46,955 bases of DNA from a virus (Duplodnaviria; Heunggongvirae; Uroviricota; Caudoviricetes): IMG/VR virus record IMGVR_UViG_643348547_000013, one strand, 5' to 3'. Shown here piece by piece: positions 91 through 46,955 of this stretch. The position numbers were made by a program, and so were the translations under genes. Positions within the stretch are counted from its first letter, which is position 1. Every line of letters begins with the position of its first letter. Under the pieces are notes generated by a model that was not told the DNA's origin, did no database searches, and saw only the letters and a program-made list of their open reading frames with translations.

Positions 91-165
91 ATGACGTTGT
101 CTCCTTATTTGCAAGAGGTGGCGAAGCGCCGCACTTTTGCCATTATTTCTCACCCCAATAATTAA
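91..165 (+). pseudogene. prfC: prfC (release factor RF3) 5' fragment, interrupted after codon 22 by the prophage
   Basis: ATG at 91 translates [22 protein letters not shown], which I recall as the RF3 N-terminus; after 'caccc' (about 155) the frame reads NN-stop instead of the expected GTPase P-loop, marking a host/phage junction. Confidence 0.65.
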
Positions 166-1781: not shown

Positions 1782-3035
1782 ATGAAAGTCGAAATGAATA
1801 CTAAACTTTTGGCCTATTTAAACAATGAGTTACATGGAGTGTGGATAGATAGTGAAAATCGTAATATCCACATAATACTTAAATCAAGCCTTCCTATAAT
1901 TAAATCCGTCTGGTCAGGAGCACCTATCCACTTTTTGGTAGGTTTATCTACTAAAAATATACTAGTGATTGGGATGTTGATTGAAGATAATGTCGATAAT
2001 CCATTTTTACTAGCCTATCCACCAAGAGAGGCAGATGAAATTAAAGGGCTGGATTTGTTATTGTCAGGCGCTTATGATGGTATTCTATTATCATTTTTTG
2101 ACTCGCATACAATGCGTGTTATGGACCTGAAAATAAAAATTTCGGAAAATTTACCGTGTGAATGTTTAAAAAAATTTTGTGCTAATTCATATTCTCTCAA
2201 TTCAGGATTTAGGGAAGGTAATGAAGCAATGGATGAATTCTGCAACAATGCTTTGACTGGTAACGAGAAAATAATTAGTCTGCCACTAAGTGTAATCGAT
2301 AAAAAATCTTACCTAGCAAGTGTTCATGAACCAAACGATACCGTATTAACATATGAATTTAGCGTCAGTGAAAACGGCTCTGAGGGATATGAGCAGGAAG
2401 CTCTTATATACCATGCTTTGCGGCAGGTCTTTTCACCGGAGGAAGTGTTTTTTTCTCCAGATATTATTGAGGGTAATAAAAAAAGAGAACTAGTTGATAT
2501 TCTTATTGTAGAAAATGACTATGTATTATCTATACAGTCTAAAGCATCATCTTTGATTGAAATGGGTTTAAAATCTCATGAAAAGCTTTGTAGCATGTAT
2601 AAGAAAAAAGCATTGCAAGGGATCGATCAGGTTAAAGGCGTTATCCCAATTCTAAATAATGATGTGGTTATTAATTATGACGGGAGGGAATGCTTAATAA
2701 AGCGCAGAAAGGGTATTTATCATTTAGTGATAATCTCAGATCTTGTTTTAGAGAAAGAAGGTGCTGAAAAGATTTATAACGAAATTAGCAACCTTAAAGA
2801 GTCAAAAGGGGCGAAAGTTTTAGTTATGAGCCTTGAAGGTCTTGTAAATTTTATAAGACTATCAAGATTAAATAAAAGAATGTTTTGGGCAATGCTGGAG
2901 ACTAAATACAAGTTCAGCATAAAAAACCGTACAATTTTAATTAGAGATATCGACTCTAGCCAAGAGAATAATCTACCATTACTTGCCACTGATCAATACC
3001 TATCACTTCTTCGAGGTACGGGAAAATTAAAATAA
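1782..3035 (+). CDS. hypothetical protein, AT-rich orphan cargo gene between int and xis
   Basis: Uninterrupted 417-aa ORF, visibly AT-rich against GC-richer flanks, convergent with the downstream early operon; no family recognised; possible D239...E244...QSK254 nuclease-like motif. Confidence 0.6.
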   Translation: MKVEMNTKLLAYLNNELHGVWIDSENRNIHIILKSSLPIIKSVWSGAPIHFLVGLSTKNILVIGMLIEDNVDNPFLLAYPPREADEIKGLDLLLSGAYDGILLSFFDSHTMRVMDLKIKISENLPCECLKKFCANSYSLNSGFREGNEAMDEFCNNALTGNEKIISLPLSVIDKKSYLASVHEPNDTVLTYEFSVSENGSEGYEQEALIYHALRQVFSPEEVFFSPDIIEGNKKRELVDILIVENDYVLSIQSKASSLIEMGLKSHEKLCSMYKKKALQGIDQVKGVIPILNNDVVINYDGRECLIKRRKGIYHLVIISDLVLEKEGAEKIYNEISNLKESKGAKVLVMSLEGLVNFIRLSRLNKRMFWAMLETKYKFSIKNRTILIRDIDSSQENNLPLLATDQYLSLLRGTGKLK

Positions 3036-3515: not shown

Positions 3516-3859
3516 TGTTGACCCTCCTGTGGTTGTGCAGTTGAAAGACTCATGCCCGCGCGTTGTTGCCAGACGACCCAGCCGAGAGCCATATCCCACG
3601 CCATGTACTCGTTATCACCGTTTTTTGCTCTCCGACGATCGACTGTTTTACCGAAACGCTTTTCCATAAATAATTCATAGGCTGCGCGTTCATCTGGCTC
3701 AACTTCCAGAGATGCCAGTGCAATCCGTGCCAGTTCTAAATCATCTTCAAGCTCAGCGCGAATCTCAGCGAATGCACTCTGTGTTAAGGCGAACTCAATG
3801 CTCTGCACTTTATTCCGTGCGCGCTCAAGCAGTGCATGGTAGTTAATTTCGGTTGTCAT
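3512..3859 (-). CDS. hypothetical phage early protein
   Basis: 115-aa ORF with RBS (gaggtagg) and translational coupling to neighbours. Confidence 0.6.
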   Translation of the reverse strand: MTTEINYHALLERARNKVQSIEFALTQSAFAEIRAELEDDLELARIALASLEVEPDERAAYELFMEKRFGKTVDRRRAKNGDNEYMAWDMALGWVVWQQRAGMSLSTAQPQEGQQ

Positions 3860-4734
3860 ACCCCTACCTCTTCGAATTTCAATACCAATTGATCACCCCA
3901 GATTTCACATGACTCTGAACACGAGCCGGTATCGAATCGCCTGGCCTGTACCATCGCCTGATACAAATTTCTGTAGTCGCTGTTGGCAGACATTCTGGCA
4001 ATTCCGTCAAGCGTCAGGTGACCACGGTACATAACGTCTTTACCTGTTCTGCGATGACCATCCCTGACGTGTTTGCCTGTAACCAGCTCATTAAAAACTC
4101 GCATCAGACCAGGTTCGTCTTTACATGCAAGCCCCAGCTTTTGCGTTGACTTTTTGATGCAGAAAACACAGTTCCCGAGATGCTCCGGGATTTGCAAATC
4201 AAAAGGTTGTTTTCGCCACCACCGGATAACATCCGACTTATCAAAATCTGACAGTTCGGCAAGATACCGGACGCCCGATTTCGGTTTCAGCCTACGGGGT
4301 TCGTCTGCACGAATACCCAGCCATGTGATGTAATTACCTCGCCCGAAATGGTTATCGCAGTATTTCGTGAAAGGGATGAGTTTTAGCCTGTCAGTACAGA
4401 ACGCGCCGCCGATGTATGGCGTGCCGTACTTTTTAACCATGTCCATAAACGGTTTAAGTACCGACATTCGCGTCTGAATATCCTTTGGCTCCCATTCTGT
4501 ATAACCATTTGGCTGCCCAAGCTCAGGATTGATATCGACCTGCAACACAGTTAGTGGTATGCCCCAGAACTTCACAACCTCCCGAATAAAGCGGTATGTC
4601 AGCGGATGTTCGCAACCGGTATCCATAAAGATGTAGCAGACGTTATTGACAGCCTTTCTTTGTTCTTCCATCAGGTGAACAAGATATGCAGATGTTCTCC
4701 CGCCGGAAAAACTAACTACATGAGTTATGCACAT
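3856..4734 (-). CDS. PAPS-reductase-like (PP-loop ATP pyrophosphatase family) protein
   Basis: N-terminal SFSGGRTS PP-loop motif; GGAG RBS 9 nt upstream of ATG at 4734. Confidence 0.8.
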   Translation of the reverse strand: MCITHVVSFSGGRTSAYLVHLMEEQRKAVNNVCYIFMDTGCEHPLTYRFIREVVKFWGIPLTVLQVDINPELGQPNGYTEWEPKDIQTRMSVLKPFMDMVKKYGTPYIGGAFCTDRLKLIPFTKYCDNHFGRGNYITWLGIRADEPRRLKPKSGVRYLAELSDFDKSDVIRWWRKQPFDLQIPEHLGNCVFCIKKSTQKLGLACKDEPGLMRVFNELVTGKHVRDGHRRTGKDVMYRGHLTLDGIARMSANSDYRNLYQAMVQARRFDTGSCSESCEIWGDQLVLKFEEVGV

Positions 4735-8603: not shown

Positions 8604-8930
8604 ATGACTAAAAATACTCGTTTTTCCCCCGAAGTCCGTCAACGGGCAGTCCGTATGGTTCTGGAAAGTCAGAGCGAATATGACTCACAATGGGCGACAA
8701 TTTGTTCCATTGCTCCAAAGACTGGCTGTACGCCGGAGACTCTGCGTGTCTGGGTTCGCCAGCATGAGCGGGATACCGGGGGCGGTGATGGAGGGCTCAC
8801 CACCGCTGAACGTCAGCGTCTGAAAGAGCTGGAACGTGAAAATCGTGAACTGCGCCGCAGTAACGATATCCTTCGCCAGGCTTCCGCTTATTTTGCGAAG
8901 GCGGAGTTCGACCGCCTCTGGAAAAAATGA
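8604..8930 (+). CDS. IS629 OrfA (transposase N-terminal HTH protein)
   Basis: 108-aa product [22 protein letters not shown]... recalled as IS629 OrfA; A6 slippery run at its 3' end. Confidence 0.9.
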
Positions 8931-17976: not shown

Positions 17977-18495
17977 ATGAGTGTGCCGCAAACAAAAGCT
18001 GAACTGCTTTTAGCTATTGATAAAAATTTTAGTAAATTAATTAGTTACCTCAACACAATCCCACCAGAAATTACTTCAGATAAATCAATGGACGGACACG
18101 CCAAAGGAACGGAGATGAGTGTTCGTGATCTCGTTTCGTATCTGCTTGGATGGAATGCTCTTGTTGTAAAGTGGATCGCTTCTGATGCTAAAGGTCTGCC
18201 TGTCGATTTTCCGGAAACTGGCTATAAATGGAATCAGCTTGGCCTTCTTGCTCAAAAATTTTACTCAGATTACAGTGAGTTAAGTTATGAGTTGTTAGTA
18301 GCTGAACTTCAGACTGTAAAAAATGAGATTGTGAACCTTATTAATGATCGTACCGATGATATTTTGTATGGAAGACCATGGTACACAAAATGGACGATGG
18401 GGAGAATGATCTCATTTAACACATCTTCGCCTTACGCCAACGCTAATGGAAGATTAAGAAAGTGGGCAAAAAATAATAATATCAGTTTAAAGTAA
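17977..18495 (+). CDS. passenger gene inside the ISL3 element; tentatively ClbS/DUF1706-like four-helix-bundle protein
   Basis: 172-aa AT-rich ORF inside the IS boundaries, upstream of the transposase; family assignment is from memory only. Confidence 0.45.
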   Translation: MSVPQTKAELLLAIDKNFSKLISYLNTIPPEITSDKSMDGHAKGTEMSVRDLVSYLLGWNALVVKWIASDAKGLPVDFPETGYKWNQLGLLAQKFYSDYSELSYELLVAELQTVKNEIVNLINDRTDDILYGRPWYTKWTMGRMISFNTSSPYANANGRLRKWAKNNNISLK

Positions 18496-18513: not shown

Positions 18514-19734
18514 ATGGACGAAAAATCCCTCTATGCCCATATCCTTAACCTGACTGCACCATGGCAGGTTAAATCCCTTACCCTCGATGAAAATGCAGGT
18601 TCCGTTACTGTTACAGTCGGAATTGCTGAAAATACTCAGTTAACCTGTCCGACCTGCAGGAAATCCTGTTCTGTTCACGATCACCGACATCGTAAATGGC
18701 GCCACCTTGATACCTGCCAGTTCATGACATTAGTAGAAGCCGATGTTCCCCGCGTTATGTGCCCGGAGCATGGCTGCCAGACTCTGCCTGTACCGTGGGC
18801 AGGTTCCGGCAGTCGGTACACTCTGCTGTTCGAATCGTTCGTGCTCTCATGGCTTAAAATCAGCACCGTTGATGCGGTCAGAAAACAACTTAAACTTAGC
18901 TGGAATGCCGTTGACGGCATCATGACCCGCGCGGTTAAGCGAGGCCTGTCGCGGATTAAAAAGCCTTTATCAGTGCGTCATATGAATGTAGACGAAGTCG
19001 CCTTTAAAAAAGGGCATAGGTATATAACCGTGGTATCTGATCGCGACGGGCGGGCACTGGCATTAACCGATGATCGTGGCACAGAGAGTCTTGCCAGCTA
19101 TCTCCGTTCGCTTACTGACAGTCAGTTGTTGGCCATCAAAACACTGTCGATGGACATGAATGCGGGCTATATAAGAGCAGCGCGTATCCATTTACCCAAT
19201 GCGGTCGAGAAAATCGCCTTCGATCGCTTCCATGTGGCGAAGCAACTGGGCGAAGTGGTTGATAAAACCCGCCAGAATGAACATCCGCACCTCCCTGTTG
19301 AAAGTCGTCGTCAGGCCAAAGGTACCCGCTTCCTGTGGCAGTACAGCGACAAATGGATGACTGAGTCCCGGCAGGAAAAGCTGATGTGGTTGCGGGAACA
19401 GATGCAACAGACAAGCCAGTGCTGGACACTGAAAGAGCTGGCAAAAAATATCTGGGATCGCCCCTGGAGCACAGAACGCAGGAATGACTGGTTGCAGTGG
19501 ATATCGCTGGCGTCTGAATGTGATGTGCCGATGATGAAAAACGCAGCGAAAACCATTAAAAAACGGTTATACGGAATACTGAATGCAATGCGTCATCGCG
19601 TCTCGAATGGAAATGCGGAGGCGCTGAACAGCAAGATCAGACTGCTGAGGATAAAGGCCAGGGGATACCGAAACCGGGAACGCTTTAAACTGGGAGTTAT
19701 GTTCCACTATGGGAAACTGAATATGGCGTACTGA
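18514..19734 (+). CDS. ISL3-family transposase
   Basis: 406-aa single-ORF transposase with N-terminal zinc-finger-like CxxC...H region typical of ISL3. Confidence 0.85.
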   Translation: MDEKSLYAHILNLTAPWQVKSLTLDENAGSVTVTVGIAENTQLTCPTCRKSCSVHDHRHRKWRHLDTCQFMTLVEADVPRVMCPEHGCQTLPVPWAGSGSRYTLLFESFVLSWLKISTVDAVRKQLKLSWNAVDGIMTRAVKRGLSRIKKPLSVRHMNVDEVAFKKGHRYITVVSDRDGRALALTDDRGTESLASYLRSLTDSQLLAIKTLSMDMNAGYIRAARIHLPNAVEKIAFDRFHVAKQLGEVVDKTRQNEHPHLPVESRRQAKGTRFLWQYSDKWMTESRQEKLMWLREQMQQTSQCWTLKELAKNIWDRPWSTERRNDWLQWISLASECDVPMMKNAAKTIKKRLYGILNAMRHRVSNGNAEALNSKIRLLRIKARGYRNRERFKLGVMFHYGKLNMAY

Positions 19735-42697: not shown

Positions 42698-44755
42698 ATG
42701 ACAGTAAAAATTTCTGGCGTGCTTAAAGATGGCACAGGAAAACCAGTACAGAACTGCACCATTGTGCTGAAGGCCAGACGGACCAGCAGCACGGTGGTGG
42801 TGAACACGGTGGCCTCTGAAAATCCGGATGAAGCCGGGCGTTACAGCATGGATGTTGAGTATGGCCAGTACAGCGTCACCCTGCTGGTTGAAGGTTTTCC
42901 GCCTTCACATGCCGGGACCATTACCGTCTATGAAGGTTCCAGACCAGGTACGCTGAATGATTTTCTCGGTGCCATGACGGAGGATGATGTTCGTCCGGAG
43001 GCACTGCGCCGTTTTGAGCTGATGGTGAATGAAGTGGCACGTCATGCCGGAGCATCATCACAGAGCGCAGCGGCAGCAAAGAAATCCGAAACTGCAGCGG
43101 CATCATCGAAGAACGCGGCGAAAACCTCAGAAACGAATGCAGCTAACAGCGCACAGGCGGCAGCGGCCTCGCAGACTGCATCGGCAAACTCCGCGACAGC
43201 AGCCAAAAAATCAGAAACCAGCGCGAAAAATAGCGAGACAGCCACAAAGGCCAGCGAAAAAAACGCAAAATCCAGCCAGACGGCAGCGAAAACCAGTGAG
43301 ACGAATGCCAAAGACAGTGAAGCCAACGCAAAGGTGAGCGAAACAGCGGCGGCGAACTCGGCGAAAGCATCGGCAGCAAGCCAGACGGCAGCAAAAGCAA
43401 GTGAAGATGCTGCCAGAGAATACGCAAACCAGACAGCAGAGCCGTACAGATATGTTTTACAGCCGCTGCCGGATGTGTGGATACCCTTTAATGATTCGCT
43501 GGATATGATTACGGGCTATTCTCCGGGTTATAAAAAAGTGAAGATTGGTGATAATGTGGTTCAGGTTGCCAGTGATAAACAGGTTAATTTCAGTCGCGCA
43601 TCAACGGCAACATATATCAACAAATCTGGCGAACTGAAAACGGCGGAAATTAATGAGCCACGATTTGAAAAAGAAGGTTTATTGATTGAAGGTCAGCGAA
43701 CCAACTACATGTTGAATTCAGCAACTCCAGCTTCTTGGGGTAAATCTGCAAATATGAATGTCGCTGAGGTTGGAACTGATAGTTTTGGTTTTACTTATGG
43801 AAAGTTTGTTTGTAATGAATCATTAATTGGGCAAAGTACAACCCTTAATATGGCAGTAGTTTCAACCTCGGGGGCTGTCGATGTATCAGGCGATAATAAG
43901 TGTGTGACGACATCGTGCAGATTTAAAACGGATTTGGAACTCCTGTTAAGGATCAGGTTTGAAGCCTTCGATGGCAGCGCTTCATCTAATCTTGGATATG
44001 CCATTGTTAATACGCGGTCTTTATTGGTTGAAATCACCGGTGTAGCTGCCGACAGGCTCACCGCACGAGTTAGCAAAGATGAAGCTACGGGCTGGATTTT
44101 TGTAGAGGCAACGATTCAAGCAAGTAAAGAAACTTACATAACCTCTGCAATACAATACGCACCAAAATCTGGTGGCGTCGTTGAATCTGGTGACTATATT
44201 TATCTGGCCACTCCTCAGGTTGAGGATGGTTCGTGTGTATCATCTTTTATTATATCAGGAACGACGGCGGCGACGCGCGCAAGCGATATGGTGACAGTTC
44301 CGATTAAGAATAATCTTTATAATCTTCCTTTTACGGTTCTTTGTGAGGTACATAAGAACTGGTATAAAACGCCAAATGCAGCACCGCGTGTTTTTGACAC
44401 ATACCGGCATCAGGCAGATGCGGGGATCGTAATGGGGTTTGGTTCATCAGGTGGGTACGACGGTTTTCCGTATTGTGATATAGGTGGTTCAAACCGACGA
44501 ATAAATGAAAATGCCGGGCTGGAAAAAATGCTTATTGGTATGCGGGTAAAGTCCGAACGGTCCACATGTGTAGTCAGTAACGGTAAGTTAAGCAGCGAAA
44601 CTAAAACCAAATGGGAATATATCCGGAGTACAGCAACCATTCGCATTGGTGGACAAACTACAGCAGGATTACGCCATTTATTTGGGCATGTGAGGAATTT
44701 TCGTCTCTGGCATAAAGAGCTAACAGATGCGCAGCTTGGGGAGGTTGTGGAGTGA
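42698..44755 (+). CDS. stf: side tail fibre protein with non-lambda C-terminal receptor-binding domain
   Basis: N-terminus MTVKISGVLKDGTGKPVQNCTI recalled from lambda Stf; Ala/Ser/Lys repeat shaft; C-terminal third is lower-GC and ends in a LamG/ConA-lectin-like signature. Confidence 0.8.
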   Translation: MTVKISGVLKDGTGKPVQNCTIVLKARRTSSTVVVNTVASENPDEAGRYSMDVEYGQYSVTLLVEGFPPSHAGTITVYEGSRPGTLNDFLGAMTEDDVRPEALRRFELMVNEVARHAGASSQSAAAAKKSETAAASSKNAAKTSETNAANSAQAAAASQTASANSATAAKKSETSAKNSETATKASEKNAKSSQTAAKTSETNAKDSEANAKVSETAAANSAKASAASQTAAKASEDAAREYANQTAEPYRYVLQPLPDVWIPFNDSLDMITGYSPGYKKVKIGDNVVQVASDKQVNFSRASTATYINKSGELKTAEINEPRFEKEGLLIEGQRTNYMLNSATPASWGKSANMNVAEVGTDSFGFTYGKFVCNESLIGQSTTLNMAVVSTSGAVDVSGDNKCVTTSCRFKTDLELLLRIRFEAFDGSASSNLGYAIVNTRSLLVEITGVAADRLTARVSKDEATGWIFVEATIQASKETYITSAIQYAPKSGGVVESGDYIYLATPQVEDGSCVSSFIISGTTAATRASDMVTVPIKNNLYNLPFTVLCEVHKNWYKTPNAAPRVFDTYRHQADAGIVMGFGSSGGYDGFPYCDIGGSNRRINENAGLEKMLIGMRVKSERSTCVVSNGKLSSETKTKWEYIRSTATIRIGGQTTAGLRHLFGHVRNFRLWHKELTDAQLGEVVE

Positions 44756-45030
44756 GAGATTTCACGTTGCGTTTCAGTGATAAAGCAGATTTCAGGGCAT
44801 TTCTCAGGAAACTTAACTGGGAAGAGGACGAAGAGCTGCAGAATGCCGTTCTGGTTGATGAGATTGGTTTTACGTTCAGGGAGACAGATGTTTCTGATGA
44901 CGGAGAACCAGAATACACGCGAAACGAAGGGTACTTTGTTAATATCCGTCTTCTTGACGATGGATTTGATGATTCCGTGTTCCGTGAGTGGGTGGTTACA
45001 CCAGAGCGCCCGCTCAGGGAGTGGTTTTAA
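44752..45030 (+). CDS. hypothetical acidic protein
   Basis: 92-aa ORF (GTG start overlapping stf stop); no family recognised. Confidence 0.4.
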   Translation: MRDFTLRFSDKADFRAFLRKLNWEEDEELQNAVLVDEIGFTFRETDVSDDGEPEYTRNEGYFVNIRLLDDGFDDSVFREWVVTPERPLREWF

Positions 45031-45039
45031 GGATAGCAG

Positions 45040-45333
45040 ATGGATATCACGTCGATACTTCATGCGCTTTGTGCCGTGGCGGTGCAGGTACTGGCTGGTC
45101 TTTTTACCGGAAACTGGGCTTACGGGGCGATAGCTGGTTGTACGTTCTTCATTGCGCGTGAACACACCCAGGCAGAATATCGCTGGATTGAAATGTTCGG
45201 GCATGGCAAGCGAATGAATATGCCGTGGTGGGGCGGTTTTGATCCGCGCGCGTGGGATGTGGCAAGCCTGATGGATTTTGCTGTGCCGGTGGTGGCGTGT
45301 CTGCTGGTCTGGCTGTTGGTTAATCGTGGGTGA
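45040..45333 (+). CDS. hypothetical small membrane protein (two predicted TM helices)
   Basis: 97-aa ORF with hydrophobic N- and C-terminal segments. Confidence 0.45.
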   Translation: MDITSILHALCAVAVQVLAGLFTGNWAYGAIAGCTFFIAREHTQAEYRWIEMFGHGKRMNMPWWGGFDPRAWDVASLMDFAVPVVACLLVWLLVNRG

Positions 45334-45343
45334 AAAAAGGTGA

Positions 45344-45472
45344 GCTGTATATGCAACGGAGGAAGAAACTCCGTTGCTGGAAGCCTGGAAGAAGTATCGG
45401 GTGTTGCTGAACCGTGTTGATACATCAACTGCACCTGATATTGAGTGGCCTGCGGTCCCTGTTATGGAGTAA
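45344..45472 (+). pseudogene. tfa: 3' remnant of tail fibre assembly gene tfa
   Basis: Frame encodes ...[40 protein letters not shown], matching the conserved Tfa C-terminus; in-frame stop at 45341-45343 and no start codon. Confidence 0.7.
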
Positions 45473-45584
45473 TCGTTTTGTGATATGCCGCAGCAACTTG
45501 TCATGGCAGGATACTGCGGCTGATTTGTGAATTTAAATAGTGTGTTTATTGCTTTATATATAAAGGATTTAATGGATTACATAT

Positions 45585-46955
45585 CTATGATATCCCTGAA
45601 ATGTCCTCTTCAAGCTCTTTTACTGATTTCGCAATTTTAAATTTAAATTTTCTCTCTATTTCACTATTGCTAAGTTTTTTTTCATTCTCTTTCCCTATCC
45701 ACATAGAAACAATTTCTCGTTTCTGAGATATATGTAGATTGTCAAAGTTAGGTATGTATTTAAAAGTCTCCGCTCTACCCCTGCGGAGTTCATAGAAAGT
45801 TTTAATCAAAGACTTTGGTTTTATTTCTGATGAAAGGCCGAATCGGCGGATAAGATTATTGATCGTATGATTAACAGCTCGAAGTTGAGCTGTTGACGTT
45901 ATTTGTGAGAAGTACGATACCCATCCCAATCGTTTACCTTCAAACACACATCCCGTAATTCTAAGATTTAGTTTCCACTGACAATATGCAACAGCTCGTT
46001 CTTTATCGCGCTTATTTTTAGCTTGTAGTAGAGCGTGTCTATATGCAGTAAAAATTTTTGCTAAGGATGACTCAAATCTAAGAATGCTCTCATGTTTTAT
46101 CAATAATTCTCGATTTTTTATGTGGTAGCCCAAAAAGTTGAAACTTTCATCCAAGCTGCCTACTTTGGATTTTGAGTTCTCTTCATTTAATGGATGTGGG
46201 TTTAAATTTAATGATTGAAGCTTATCAATGATATGAGATGCAATTTTTGTTGCTTGATCTTTTTGCGTTAAAATAAGAATGTCATCAACGTATCGCATGT
46301 ACCATATGTCATGCATTTTATTGATTTCATTGTCGAAATCAGATAGTGATATTTCAGCTAAAATGTTTGATATTGCTAACCCCTGAGGTACTCCTCTGGT
46401 ATTATTAGGGACACCTTTGCTTCCTGTACTTCCACTTACAGTAGGCACGATTAATGATGATGTTATTAACTGCCTAATTTCTTTTTTTCTAATCTTATTT
46501 TTTATTGCATTAAATATCAATTTATGTTCAATTGAAGGATAGAAACTTTTGAGATCTATTTTTGCATATTCAGCATATAGATCGCTGTTTAATGCATTTT
46601 TCAATAAGTCAATTACTGTATGTGGTAGTTTTAATCTGGAGTTAGGATATATTTCTGTAAGGCATTCACAGAGAGCCCTAAGGGTAATTCTGTCCCTGGC
46701 AGTTGGTATGGAAATCTGTCTGGGGATAGAGTTAGCCCCTTTAGATATTAATTTTTCTTTATATGCTGTAAATTTATAATTTCCACAATTAACCTTTTCA
46801 AAAATAAAAGTGATCTCATTCTTTATTGTTAAATCAAGTTTTGATGGACGAATCCGATCTATGCCAATCGCTCCTGATTCTTTGATTTTTTCATTGTATA
46901 CTTTTAGAAGGTTTTTTTTCGAGAATGACTTTTTAAAAACTCTGCTTGCATTCAT
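45585..46955 (-). CDS. standalone reverse transcriptase (retron / Abi / DRT-like), family unresolved
   Basis: 456-aa AT-rich ORF with RT motifs in order: PRQISIPTARDRITLRAL, NALNS...KIDLKSFYPSI, PQGLAISNILAEI, YVDD (YMRYVDDILIL), FNFLGYHI, then a roughly 180-aa C-terminal extension; start codon sits at the window edge. Confidence 0.85.
   Translation of the reverse strand: MNASRVFKKSFSKKNLLKVYNEKIKESGAIGIDRIRPSKLDLTIKNEITFIFEKVNCGNYKFTAYKEKLISKGANSIPRQISIPTARDRITLRALCECLTEIYPNSRLKLPHTVIDLLKNALNSDLYAEYAKIDLKSFYPSIEHKLIFNAIKNKIRKKEIRQLITSSLIVPTVSGSTGSKGVPNNTRGVPQGLAISNILAEISLSDFDNEINKMHDIWYMRYVDDILILTQKDQATKIASHIIDKLQSLNLNPHPLNEENSKSKVGSLDESFNFLGYHIKNRELLIKHESILRFESSLAKIFTAYRHALLQAKNKRDKERAVAYCQWKLNLRITGCVFEGKRLGWVSYFSQITSTAQLRAVNHTINNLIRRFGLSSEIKPKSLIKTFYELRRGRAETFKYIPNFDNLHISQKREIVSMWIGKENEKKLSNSEIERKFKFKIAKSVKELEEDISGIS

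Follow-up and report, generated by a model that had tools for sequence, protein, structure and literature searches.

The right end of the DNA analysed here, a stretch of 46,955 nucleotides called the window below, is occupied by an open reading frame (ORF) for a reverse transcriptase (RT), which raises the question of the family to which this enzyme belongs and of whether it acts alone or together with elements lying past the last nucleotide. The explanation in which we have high confidence is that this ORF encodes the RT of an anti-phage system of the Eco3DRT10 type (DRT10, UG17), and that this system is cargo of a lambdoid prophage integrated in the 5' end of prfC.

The reverse transcriptase gene and its product

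The RT gene extends from 45585 to 46955 on the minus strand and codes for 456 residues from an ATG start; RefSeq annotates the same protein (WP_000994250.1) at the same coordinates. The YVDD motif corresponds to residues 222-225 (codons at window 46281-46292) and the codon of the C-terminal residue, Ser456, is found at 45588-45590. The ORF, the RefSeq entry and the motif positions agree, and the 456-residue minus-strand RT with YVDD reported in the preliminary description of the locus is intact. The loss of YVDD that was envisaged there was not observed, the motif being present and, like R371, Y388 and S456, invariant in 67 aligned homologues. The AT-rich composition noted in the same description was also found, the G+C content of the gene being 0.33 for 0.507 in the remainder of the window.

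The protein was compared with RT-family profiles, as had been proposed. Its best match was the PADLOC profile RT_UG17, aligned over the full length of both (residues 1-456 on profile positions 1-429 of 429; E = 8.3e-159, 527 bits), and the runner-up, Drt3a, reached 127 bits. The enzyme is a UG17 RT, a family now named DRT10, of the Eco3 type. Of the two defence-associated affinities suggested there, UG/DRT or Abi, the former is borne out by the UG17 profile and the latter was rejected on profile scores and gene neighbourhood.

The search for homologues of the RT returned 1,967 proteins at E < 1e-10. The best 120 of them, which span Enterobacterales, Pseudomonas, Stutzerimonas and Aeromonas, measure 452-460 residues, three outliers excepted. 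K385 is invariant in a 22-sequence alignment and conserved in at least 90% of the 67 homologues. The Pfam domain RVT_1 covers residues 77-279 (E = 8e-21), leaving on its C-terminal side 177 residues that are the best-conserved part of the protein. In the AlphaFold2 model (mean pLDDT 87.4), a long terminal helix (residues 430-453) precedes Ser456, and the model can be aligned with the G2L4, DRT9 and GsI-IIC RTs over 420-518 columns. On the basis of this alignment, the C-terminal region is modelled as a thumb followed by a C-terminal domain bearing the priming serine. The statement that the last 180 residues or so have no recognisable fold has thus to be abandoned, since the model of these 177 residues is confident and they align with thumb and C-terminal parts of RTs of known structure. 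A sequence search of the PDB revealed no DRT10 entry, in a copy that does not hold the coordinates cited in a 2026 preprint.

The operon continues past the end of the window

The window is base-for-base identical (100%) to positions 5051706-5098660 of the E. coli IAI39 chromosome (NC_011750.1), and its end coincides exactly with the RT start codon. In the RefSeq annotation of IAI39, the last 23 nucleotides (46933-46955, minus strand) are also the 3' end of a SLATT_5 effector gene, which overlaps the RT start in another frame; the window therefore cuts the operon. The full gene (NC_011750.1 5098638-5099189), of which all but these 23 nucleotides lie outside the window, codes for a protein of 183 residues recognised by Pfam SLATT_5 (E = 2.3e-28) and by the PADLOC profile RTasSLATT, for RT-associated SLATT (E = 2.8e-57). 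Upstream of it in IAI39 are found about 245 nucleotides of non-coding DNA, a frameshifted dinI-like gene and prfC.

On the minus strand, the module is thus read in the order promoter-like site, 137-nt non-coding RNA (ncRNA), 183-residue SLATT_5 membrane protein and RT. The description of the RT as standalone was wrong: because the first 23 nt of the RT gene are also the last of the SLATT_5 gene, the two genes are translationally overlapped in a three-part operon. The same description had correctly anticipated that a partner gene or a non-coding RNA would lie upstream, past the window edge, where IAI39 carries both; inspection of the sequence beyond 46955 highlighted the structured ncRNA and the SLATT gene and no msr/msd. 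Several IMG/VR prophage contigs (loci L046, L048, L052 and L074) also start their record at the RT start codon, suggesting that the operon is repeatedly split by prophage-boundary calls, with the SLATT gene and the ncRNA left out of sight.

A structured non-coding RNA upstream of the SLATT gene

The predicted ncRNA of IAI39 is 137 nt long and is located outside the window, on the minus strand (locus L001, 11240-11104). Its predicted 5' end (11240) comes 7 nt after the end of a promoter-like site, TTGACT-18-AATAAT, which has an extended -10 TG. The predicted fold of the RNA (-54.2 kcal/mol, z = -5.7) comprises a basal stem and four stem-loops, with an unpaired loop at positions 104-124. RefSeq carries no annotation of this ncRNA.

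A sequence search detected homologues of the RNA in 15 loci, among them loci of Photorhabdus, Buttiauxella, Pseudomonas and Stutzerimonas, in each case 560-700 nt upstream of the RT gene. After alignment of the 15 RNAs by hand, 96.3% of the cells can pair, versus about 51% when the partners are slid, and 17 of the 35 pairs show changes on both sides; none of 500 shuffles reached these values. No Rfam 15 family matched the upstream RNA, and Rfam searches of the 4 kb around the RT gene detected no intron RNA. As the DRT10 RNA is not yet in Rfam, a covariance model of our own was built from the 15-sequence alignment. It found the RNA in 45 of 74 sources, including loci whose RT is just 37-42% identical, and in every locus where its position was compared with that of the RT, the RNA was on the RT strand and upstream (about 550-700 nt). 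In the larger alignment fitted by the model, 27 of the 35 pairs covary, with changes on both sides, and again none of 500 shuffles attained the observed values. The predicted structure of the ncRNA is therefore supported by covariation. The scan of the window with the same model detected no copy of the RNA inside it.

The module is cargo of a lambdoid prophage

The window corresponds to a lambdoid prophage whose integration site is the 5' end of prfC. The original start of prfC, displaced by the insertion, is located near the left end (window 91-159) and contains a 14-nt core, ATTATTTCTCACCC, at 142-155. A second copy of this core lies 1.26 kb beyond the window end, where a substitute 5' end of prfC is provided by the phage (L001 11769-11830), and the DRT10 module is consequently inside the prophage. 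It lies between the tail-fibre genes and the dinI-like gene beside attR. The similarity to phage lambda (96%) stops at about window 45505, and a tfa remnant devoid of its N-terminus is annotated at 45353-45472, in agreement with the position just past a truncated tfa given in the preliminary description, whose reading of the RT as acquired cargo also fits this AT-rich gene, located in a lambdoid prophage's accessory region.

A GC-rich hairpin (GCCGCAG...CTGCGGC, window 45487-45520) separates the RT gene from the convergent tail-fibre genes; on the minus strand its folding energy is -17.5 kcal/mol (z = -3.8). It forms the left edge of the DNA common to cassette copies with differing tail-fibre neighbours, and the similarity of IAI39 to two other loci (L044 and L045) begins there. 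The hairpin may be a terminator; on the minus strand it has no U-run and it was not called by a terminator scan.

The cassette is present in 188 of 5,426 complete E. coli genomes, on chromosomes only. In E. coli 6409 (L043, NZ_CP010371.1), the RT-SLATT-ncRNA-dinI block belongs to a prophage at dusA, with a tyrosine recombinase adjoining dinI; the block is therefore common to lambdoid prophages with other integration modules and other tail-fibre genes. The dinI-like gene beside the ncRNA promoter (L001 11330-11549, outside the window) is frameshifted in IAI39 and intact in strains 6409, PK6 and MS20654. IMG/VR holds 29 prophage contigs carrying the RT of the window or its relatives, and PHROGs families exist for both RT and SLATT. 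Among the INPHARED phage genomes, no close homologue was found by DNA or by protein.

Other genes of the prophage were noted in passing. A gene just after the integrase (window 1794-3035, plus strand), a position typical of cargo, encodes a hypothetical protein of 413 residues; the protein aligned along its full length with phrog_30399, a family of unknown function, and had no match in the PADLOC search. A PAPS-reductase-family gene (3856-4734, minus strand), beside yfdR, yfdQ and yfdP, is matched by PADLOC SspD (E = 1e-15) and weakly by BrxP, and from these profile matches may be DNA-modification or defence-related cargo. Two small conserved phage ORFs of unknown function, phrog_1361 and phrog_1443 (44752-45030 and 45040-45333, plus strand), separate the tail-fibre gene from the tfa remnant; by eye, the second has long hydrophobic stretches. 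An IS3-family element interrupts ymfL and an ISL3 element (ISEc53) has a ClbS/DfsB-family gene on one side and a type II DNA methyltransferase on the other (window 8604-9817, 18514-19734 and 17977-18495); further pseudogenes are yfdR and an HNH fragment. These insertions and pseudogenes suggest that the prophage is defective.

Comparison with Eco3DRT10 and related systems

UG17 was named DRT10 in 2025, and the ncRNA, SLATT and RT were all required for defence (PMC12632851). For Eco3DRT10, priming from Ser456, a 137-nt RNA, a 9-nt repeat and an A-B-A' rule were described (PMC12632851). The DRT10 RT makes protein-primed tandem-repeat cDNA (PMC12632851; 10.64898/2026.04.29.721553; 10.64898/2026.06.29.735271), the RT:RNA stoichiometry of the complex is 2:1 (bioRxiv 10.64898/2026.06.29.735271) and activation is controlled by SbcB and an SSB-like phage protein (bioRxiv 10.64898/2026.04.29.721553). 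Two published studies conflict on the fate of the cDNA upon infection, a rise being found in one and a fall in the other. The key positions named in the literature are G44, G86, G104, U105-U106, C107, G111 and A120-U123 of the RNA and R371, K385 and Y388 of the RT (bioRxiv 10.64898/2026.06.29.735271).

All published named positions of RNA and RT match the IAI39 locus by number. Like Eco3DRT10 (Tang et al. 2025; Ramirez et al. 2026), it has the order ncRNA-SLATT-RT with overlapping SLATT and RT genes, and a 456-residue RT with YVDD, R371, K385, Y388 and a C-terminal Ser456. Its RNA is likewise of 137 nt and shares the U-tracts 12-17 and 61-64 (around U15 and U62), G44 in loop A, G86, G104, the linker U105-U106, the template boundary C107, G111 and the linker A120-U123, with a 9-nt template followed by a CAAU realignment site. 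The RT of Eco3DRT10 (OKX54664) counts 456 residues once its start was corrected by two codons by the authors; this correction is consistent with the ATG start of the present ORF, which is preceded at two codons by an in-frame TTG. The supplement of Tang et al. contains at least 28 near-identical E. coli entries that end in EEDISGIS. The locus differs from Eco3DRT10 by the RNA substitutions U110C and A112G, with GAACCGTTG as predicted repeat, and by an A/A' match of 3 nt and a wobble instead of 4 nt; its identity to alleles with the Eco3 template is about 95% for the RT and about 89% for the SLATT.

UG17-A of Escherichia sp. E3659 (Sanchez-Nieto et al. 2026) and Eco1DRT10 are members of the same family, with the same three-part architecture, SLATT_5 and tandem-repeat cDNA, but belong to another clade than the locus studied here. 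Their RTs are shorter (the E3659 RT gene measures 1,338 nt and Eco1 primes from Tyr444), their ncRNAs have six stem-loops (143 nt in E3659) and their repeats are of 7 nt in E3659 and 8 nt in Eco1. DRT9 (UG28) and DRT2 (UG2) share the ncRNA-templated repetitive cDNA and the RT fold, and DRT9 is also protein-primed; however, DRT9, which lacks SLATT, copies a poly-U template into poly(dA), DRT2 produces a 120-nt concatemer encoding the Neo protein, and the scores of both profiles on the present RT are far below that of UG17.

The template loop and its two natural alleles

In IAI39, the template loop reads CAACGGUUC followed by CAAU, which gives the A-B-A' arrangement CAAC-GGUUC-CAAU at RNA positions 107-119 (L001 11122-11134). 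The studied Eco3 template is CAAUGAUUC followed by CAAU and yields the cDNA repeat GAATCATTG. As a consequence of the two base differences, U110C and A112G, the repeat predicted for the IAI39 allele is not GAATCATTG. A and A' of IAI39 match over 3 nt with a possible additional G:U wobble, and the expected product is a 9-nt GAACCGTTG repeat, with the wobble at the fourth realignment position. This prediction is founded on the published observations that the 5' boundary is set by the distance to stem-loop 5, that substitution of position 110 is tolerated and that B is flexible. A second, overlapping repeat of period 8, GUUC-AACG-GUUC, is also present in the IAI39 allele; this register, whose product would be CGTTGAAC, might reduce the precision of the repeat.

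Patterns of the A-B-A' type with A of at least 4 nt were found in 14 of the 15 template loops, versus 4.1 expected from shuffles, and relatives carry a pattern of like kind at the aligned loop position. The exact Eco3 template, CAAUGAUUCCAAU, occurs in the E. coli strain MS20654, in an allele about 95% identical to the one of the window (about 94% for DNA, 95.2% for RT and 89.1% for SLATT). Allele-specific 35-mers split the 188 cassette-bearing complete E. coli genomes cleanly, 154 having the CAACGGUUC template and 34 the CAAUGAUUC template, so that all are accounted for. In the DRT10 literature, no direct test of the IAI39 template allele was found. The different repeat and the second 8-nt register raise the idea that this allele might yield a different or mixed product, and that the allele split might reflect selection on the repeat itself; it is put forward as a speculation more likely to be false than true by a wide margin.

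Alternative explanations

The reading that survives best after the preferred one is that the cassette is a decayed, non-functional copy, part of the debris of a prophage that bears IS3 and ISL3 insertions and several pseudogenes and in which the adjacent dinI-like gene is frameshifted. The module itself does not share this decay: it has intact RT and SLATT reading frames, five intact RNA helices and an intact promoter-like site, all the residues experimentally essential in Eco3DRT10 are present, and the cassette has been retained, with identical or nearly identical sequence, in 188 genomes. Decay of the copy is consequently judged improbable.

Assignment to another class 2 UG system, such as DRT3 (UG3/UG8), DRT2 or DRT9, could be considered because the next profiles are Drt3a (E = 2e-37) and Drt2 (E = 1e-24) and the DRT9 RT is among the top structural matches. 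However, UG17 scores 527 bits against 127 for Drt3a, and the NCBIfam models remain under their cut-offs (Drt3a 112 for 200, Drt2 75 for 390). The second RT gene of DRT3 (Drt3b) is missing, the sole neighbours being SLATT and the dinI-like pseudogene, and the template loop contains a 9-nt A-B-A' unit, not ACACAC or poly-U. We regard this assignment as very improbable.

A retron RT producing msDNA from an upstream msr/msd RNA had been evoked in the preliminary description from the NAxxS and ITG motifs, and some database entries name the homologues 'retron-type reverse transcriptase'. Both motifs exist, as NALNS at residue 120 and ITG at residue 333; among homologues N120 is variable and RITGC invariant. 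The resemblance to retrons did not hold: the RT has neither NAxxH nor VTG, NCBIfam retron_St85_RT gives 63 bits for a cut-off of 235 and the top PADLOC retron-type match is far under UG17. Upstream are found a SLATT gene and a five-stem RNA with an internal template loop, without match in Rfam, and not an msr/msd with flanking inverted repeats. Hardly any weight is left to this reading.

The same negligible weight is given to a group II intron RT/maturase or its remnant, a possibility raised by TIGR04416 (E = 1e-40), by a weak sub-threshold GIIM match (residues 344-372) and by group II intron RTs ranking among the best structural matches, but contradicted by scores under the cut-offs (TIGR04416 139.9 bits for 300, GIIM 15.1 for 23), by the lack of any intron RNA domain in the Rfam search of the 4 kb around the gene, by an RT devoid of endonuclease or DNA-binding domain, and by a gene that is operonic with SLATT and whose product keeps a constant length of 454-457 residues from genus to genus.

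Proposed mechanism and significance

For the DRT10 system retained here, a course of action can be proposed, its steps being transposed by inference to the IAI39 copy from experimental work on close homologues. Two RT molecules would bind the five-stem ncRNA, and one of them would prime DNA synthesis from the hydroxyl of its own Ser456. This RT would copy the 9-nt template in loop B (C107-C115), with a stop boundary presumably set by stem-loop 5, after which the 3' end of the cDNA would re-anneal on the downstream A' repeat (C116-U119). By repeated cycles, kilobase-long single-stranded tandem repeats should be produced, with 5'-GAACCGTTG-3' as predicted unit. Infection would alter the state or amount of this cDNA, leading, as proposed for the homologues, to activation of the SLATT membrane effector and to the arrest of infection.

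A short internal template, a template-boundary stem and an alignment segment that give repeat-addition processivity have been compared with telomerase (PMC12632851). Unlike telomerase (TERT and telomerase RNA), DRT10 is protein-primed and not primed by a chromosome end, has a 2:1 RT:RNA stoichiometry and serves bacterial defence with a membrane effector.

The RT of the window is real and intact but already known, a nearly identical DRT10 homologue having been characterised genetically, biochemically and structurally. What is new here is small in each case: the split operon, the location in the accessory region of a lambdoid prophage and a commonest template unlike the studied one. A record boundary at the RT start codon conceals two thirds of a DRT10 system. 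The locus shows an Eco3-type DRT10 lodged in a lambdoid prophage, with the tail-fibre genes on one side and attR on the other. The commonest natural template of E. coli differs from the one that has been studied (154 versus 34 of the 188 genomes), and if the repeat itself were under selection, this selection could come from the cDNA sensor or from phage counter-measures. DRT10 is of wide interest for its telomerase-like, protein-primed synthesis of repeat DNA; the locus of the window adds no new kind of system to it.
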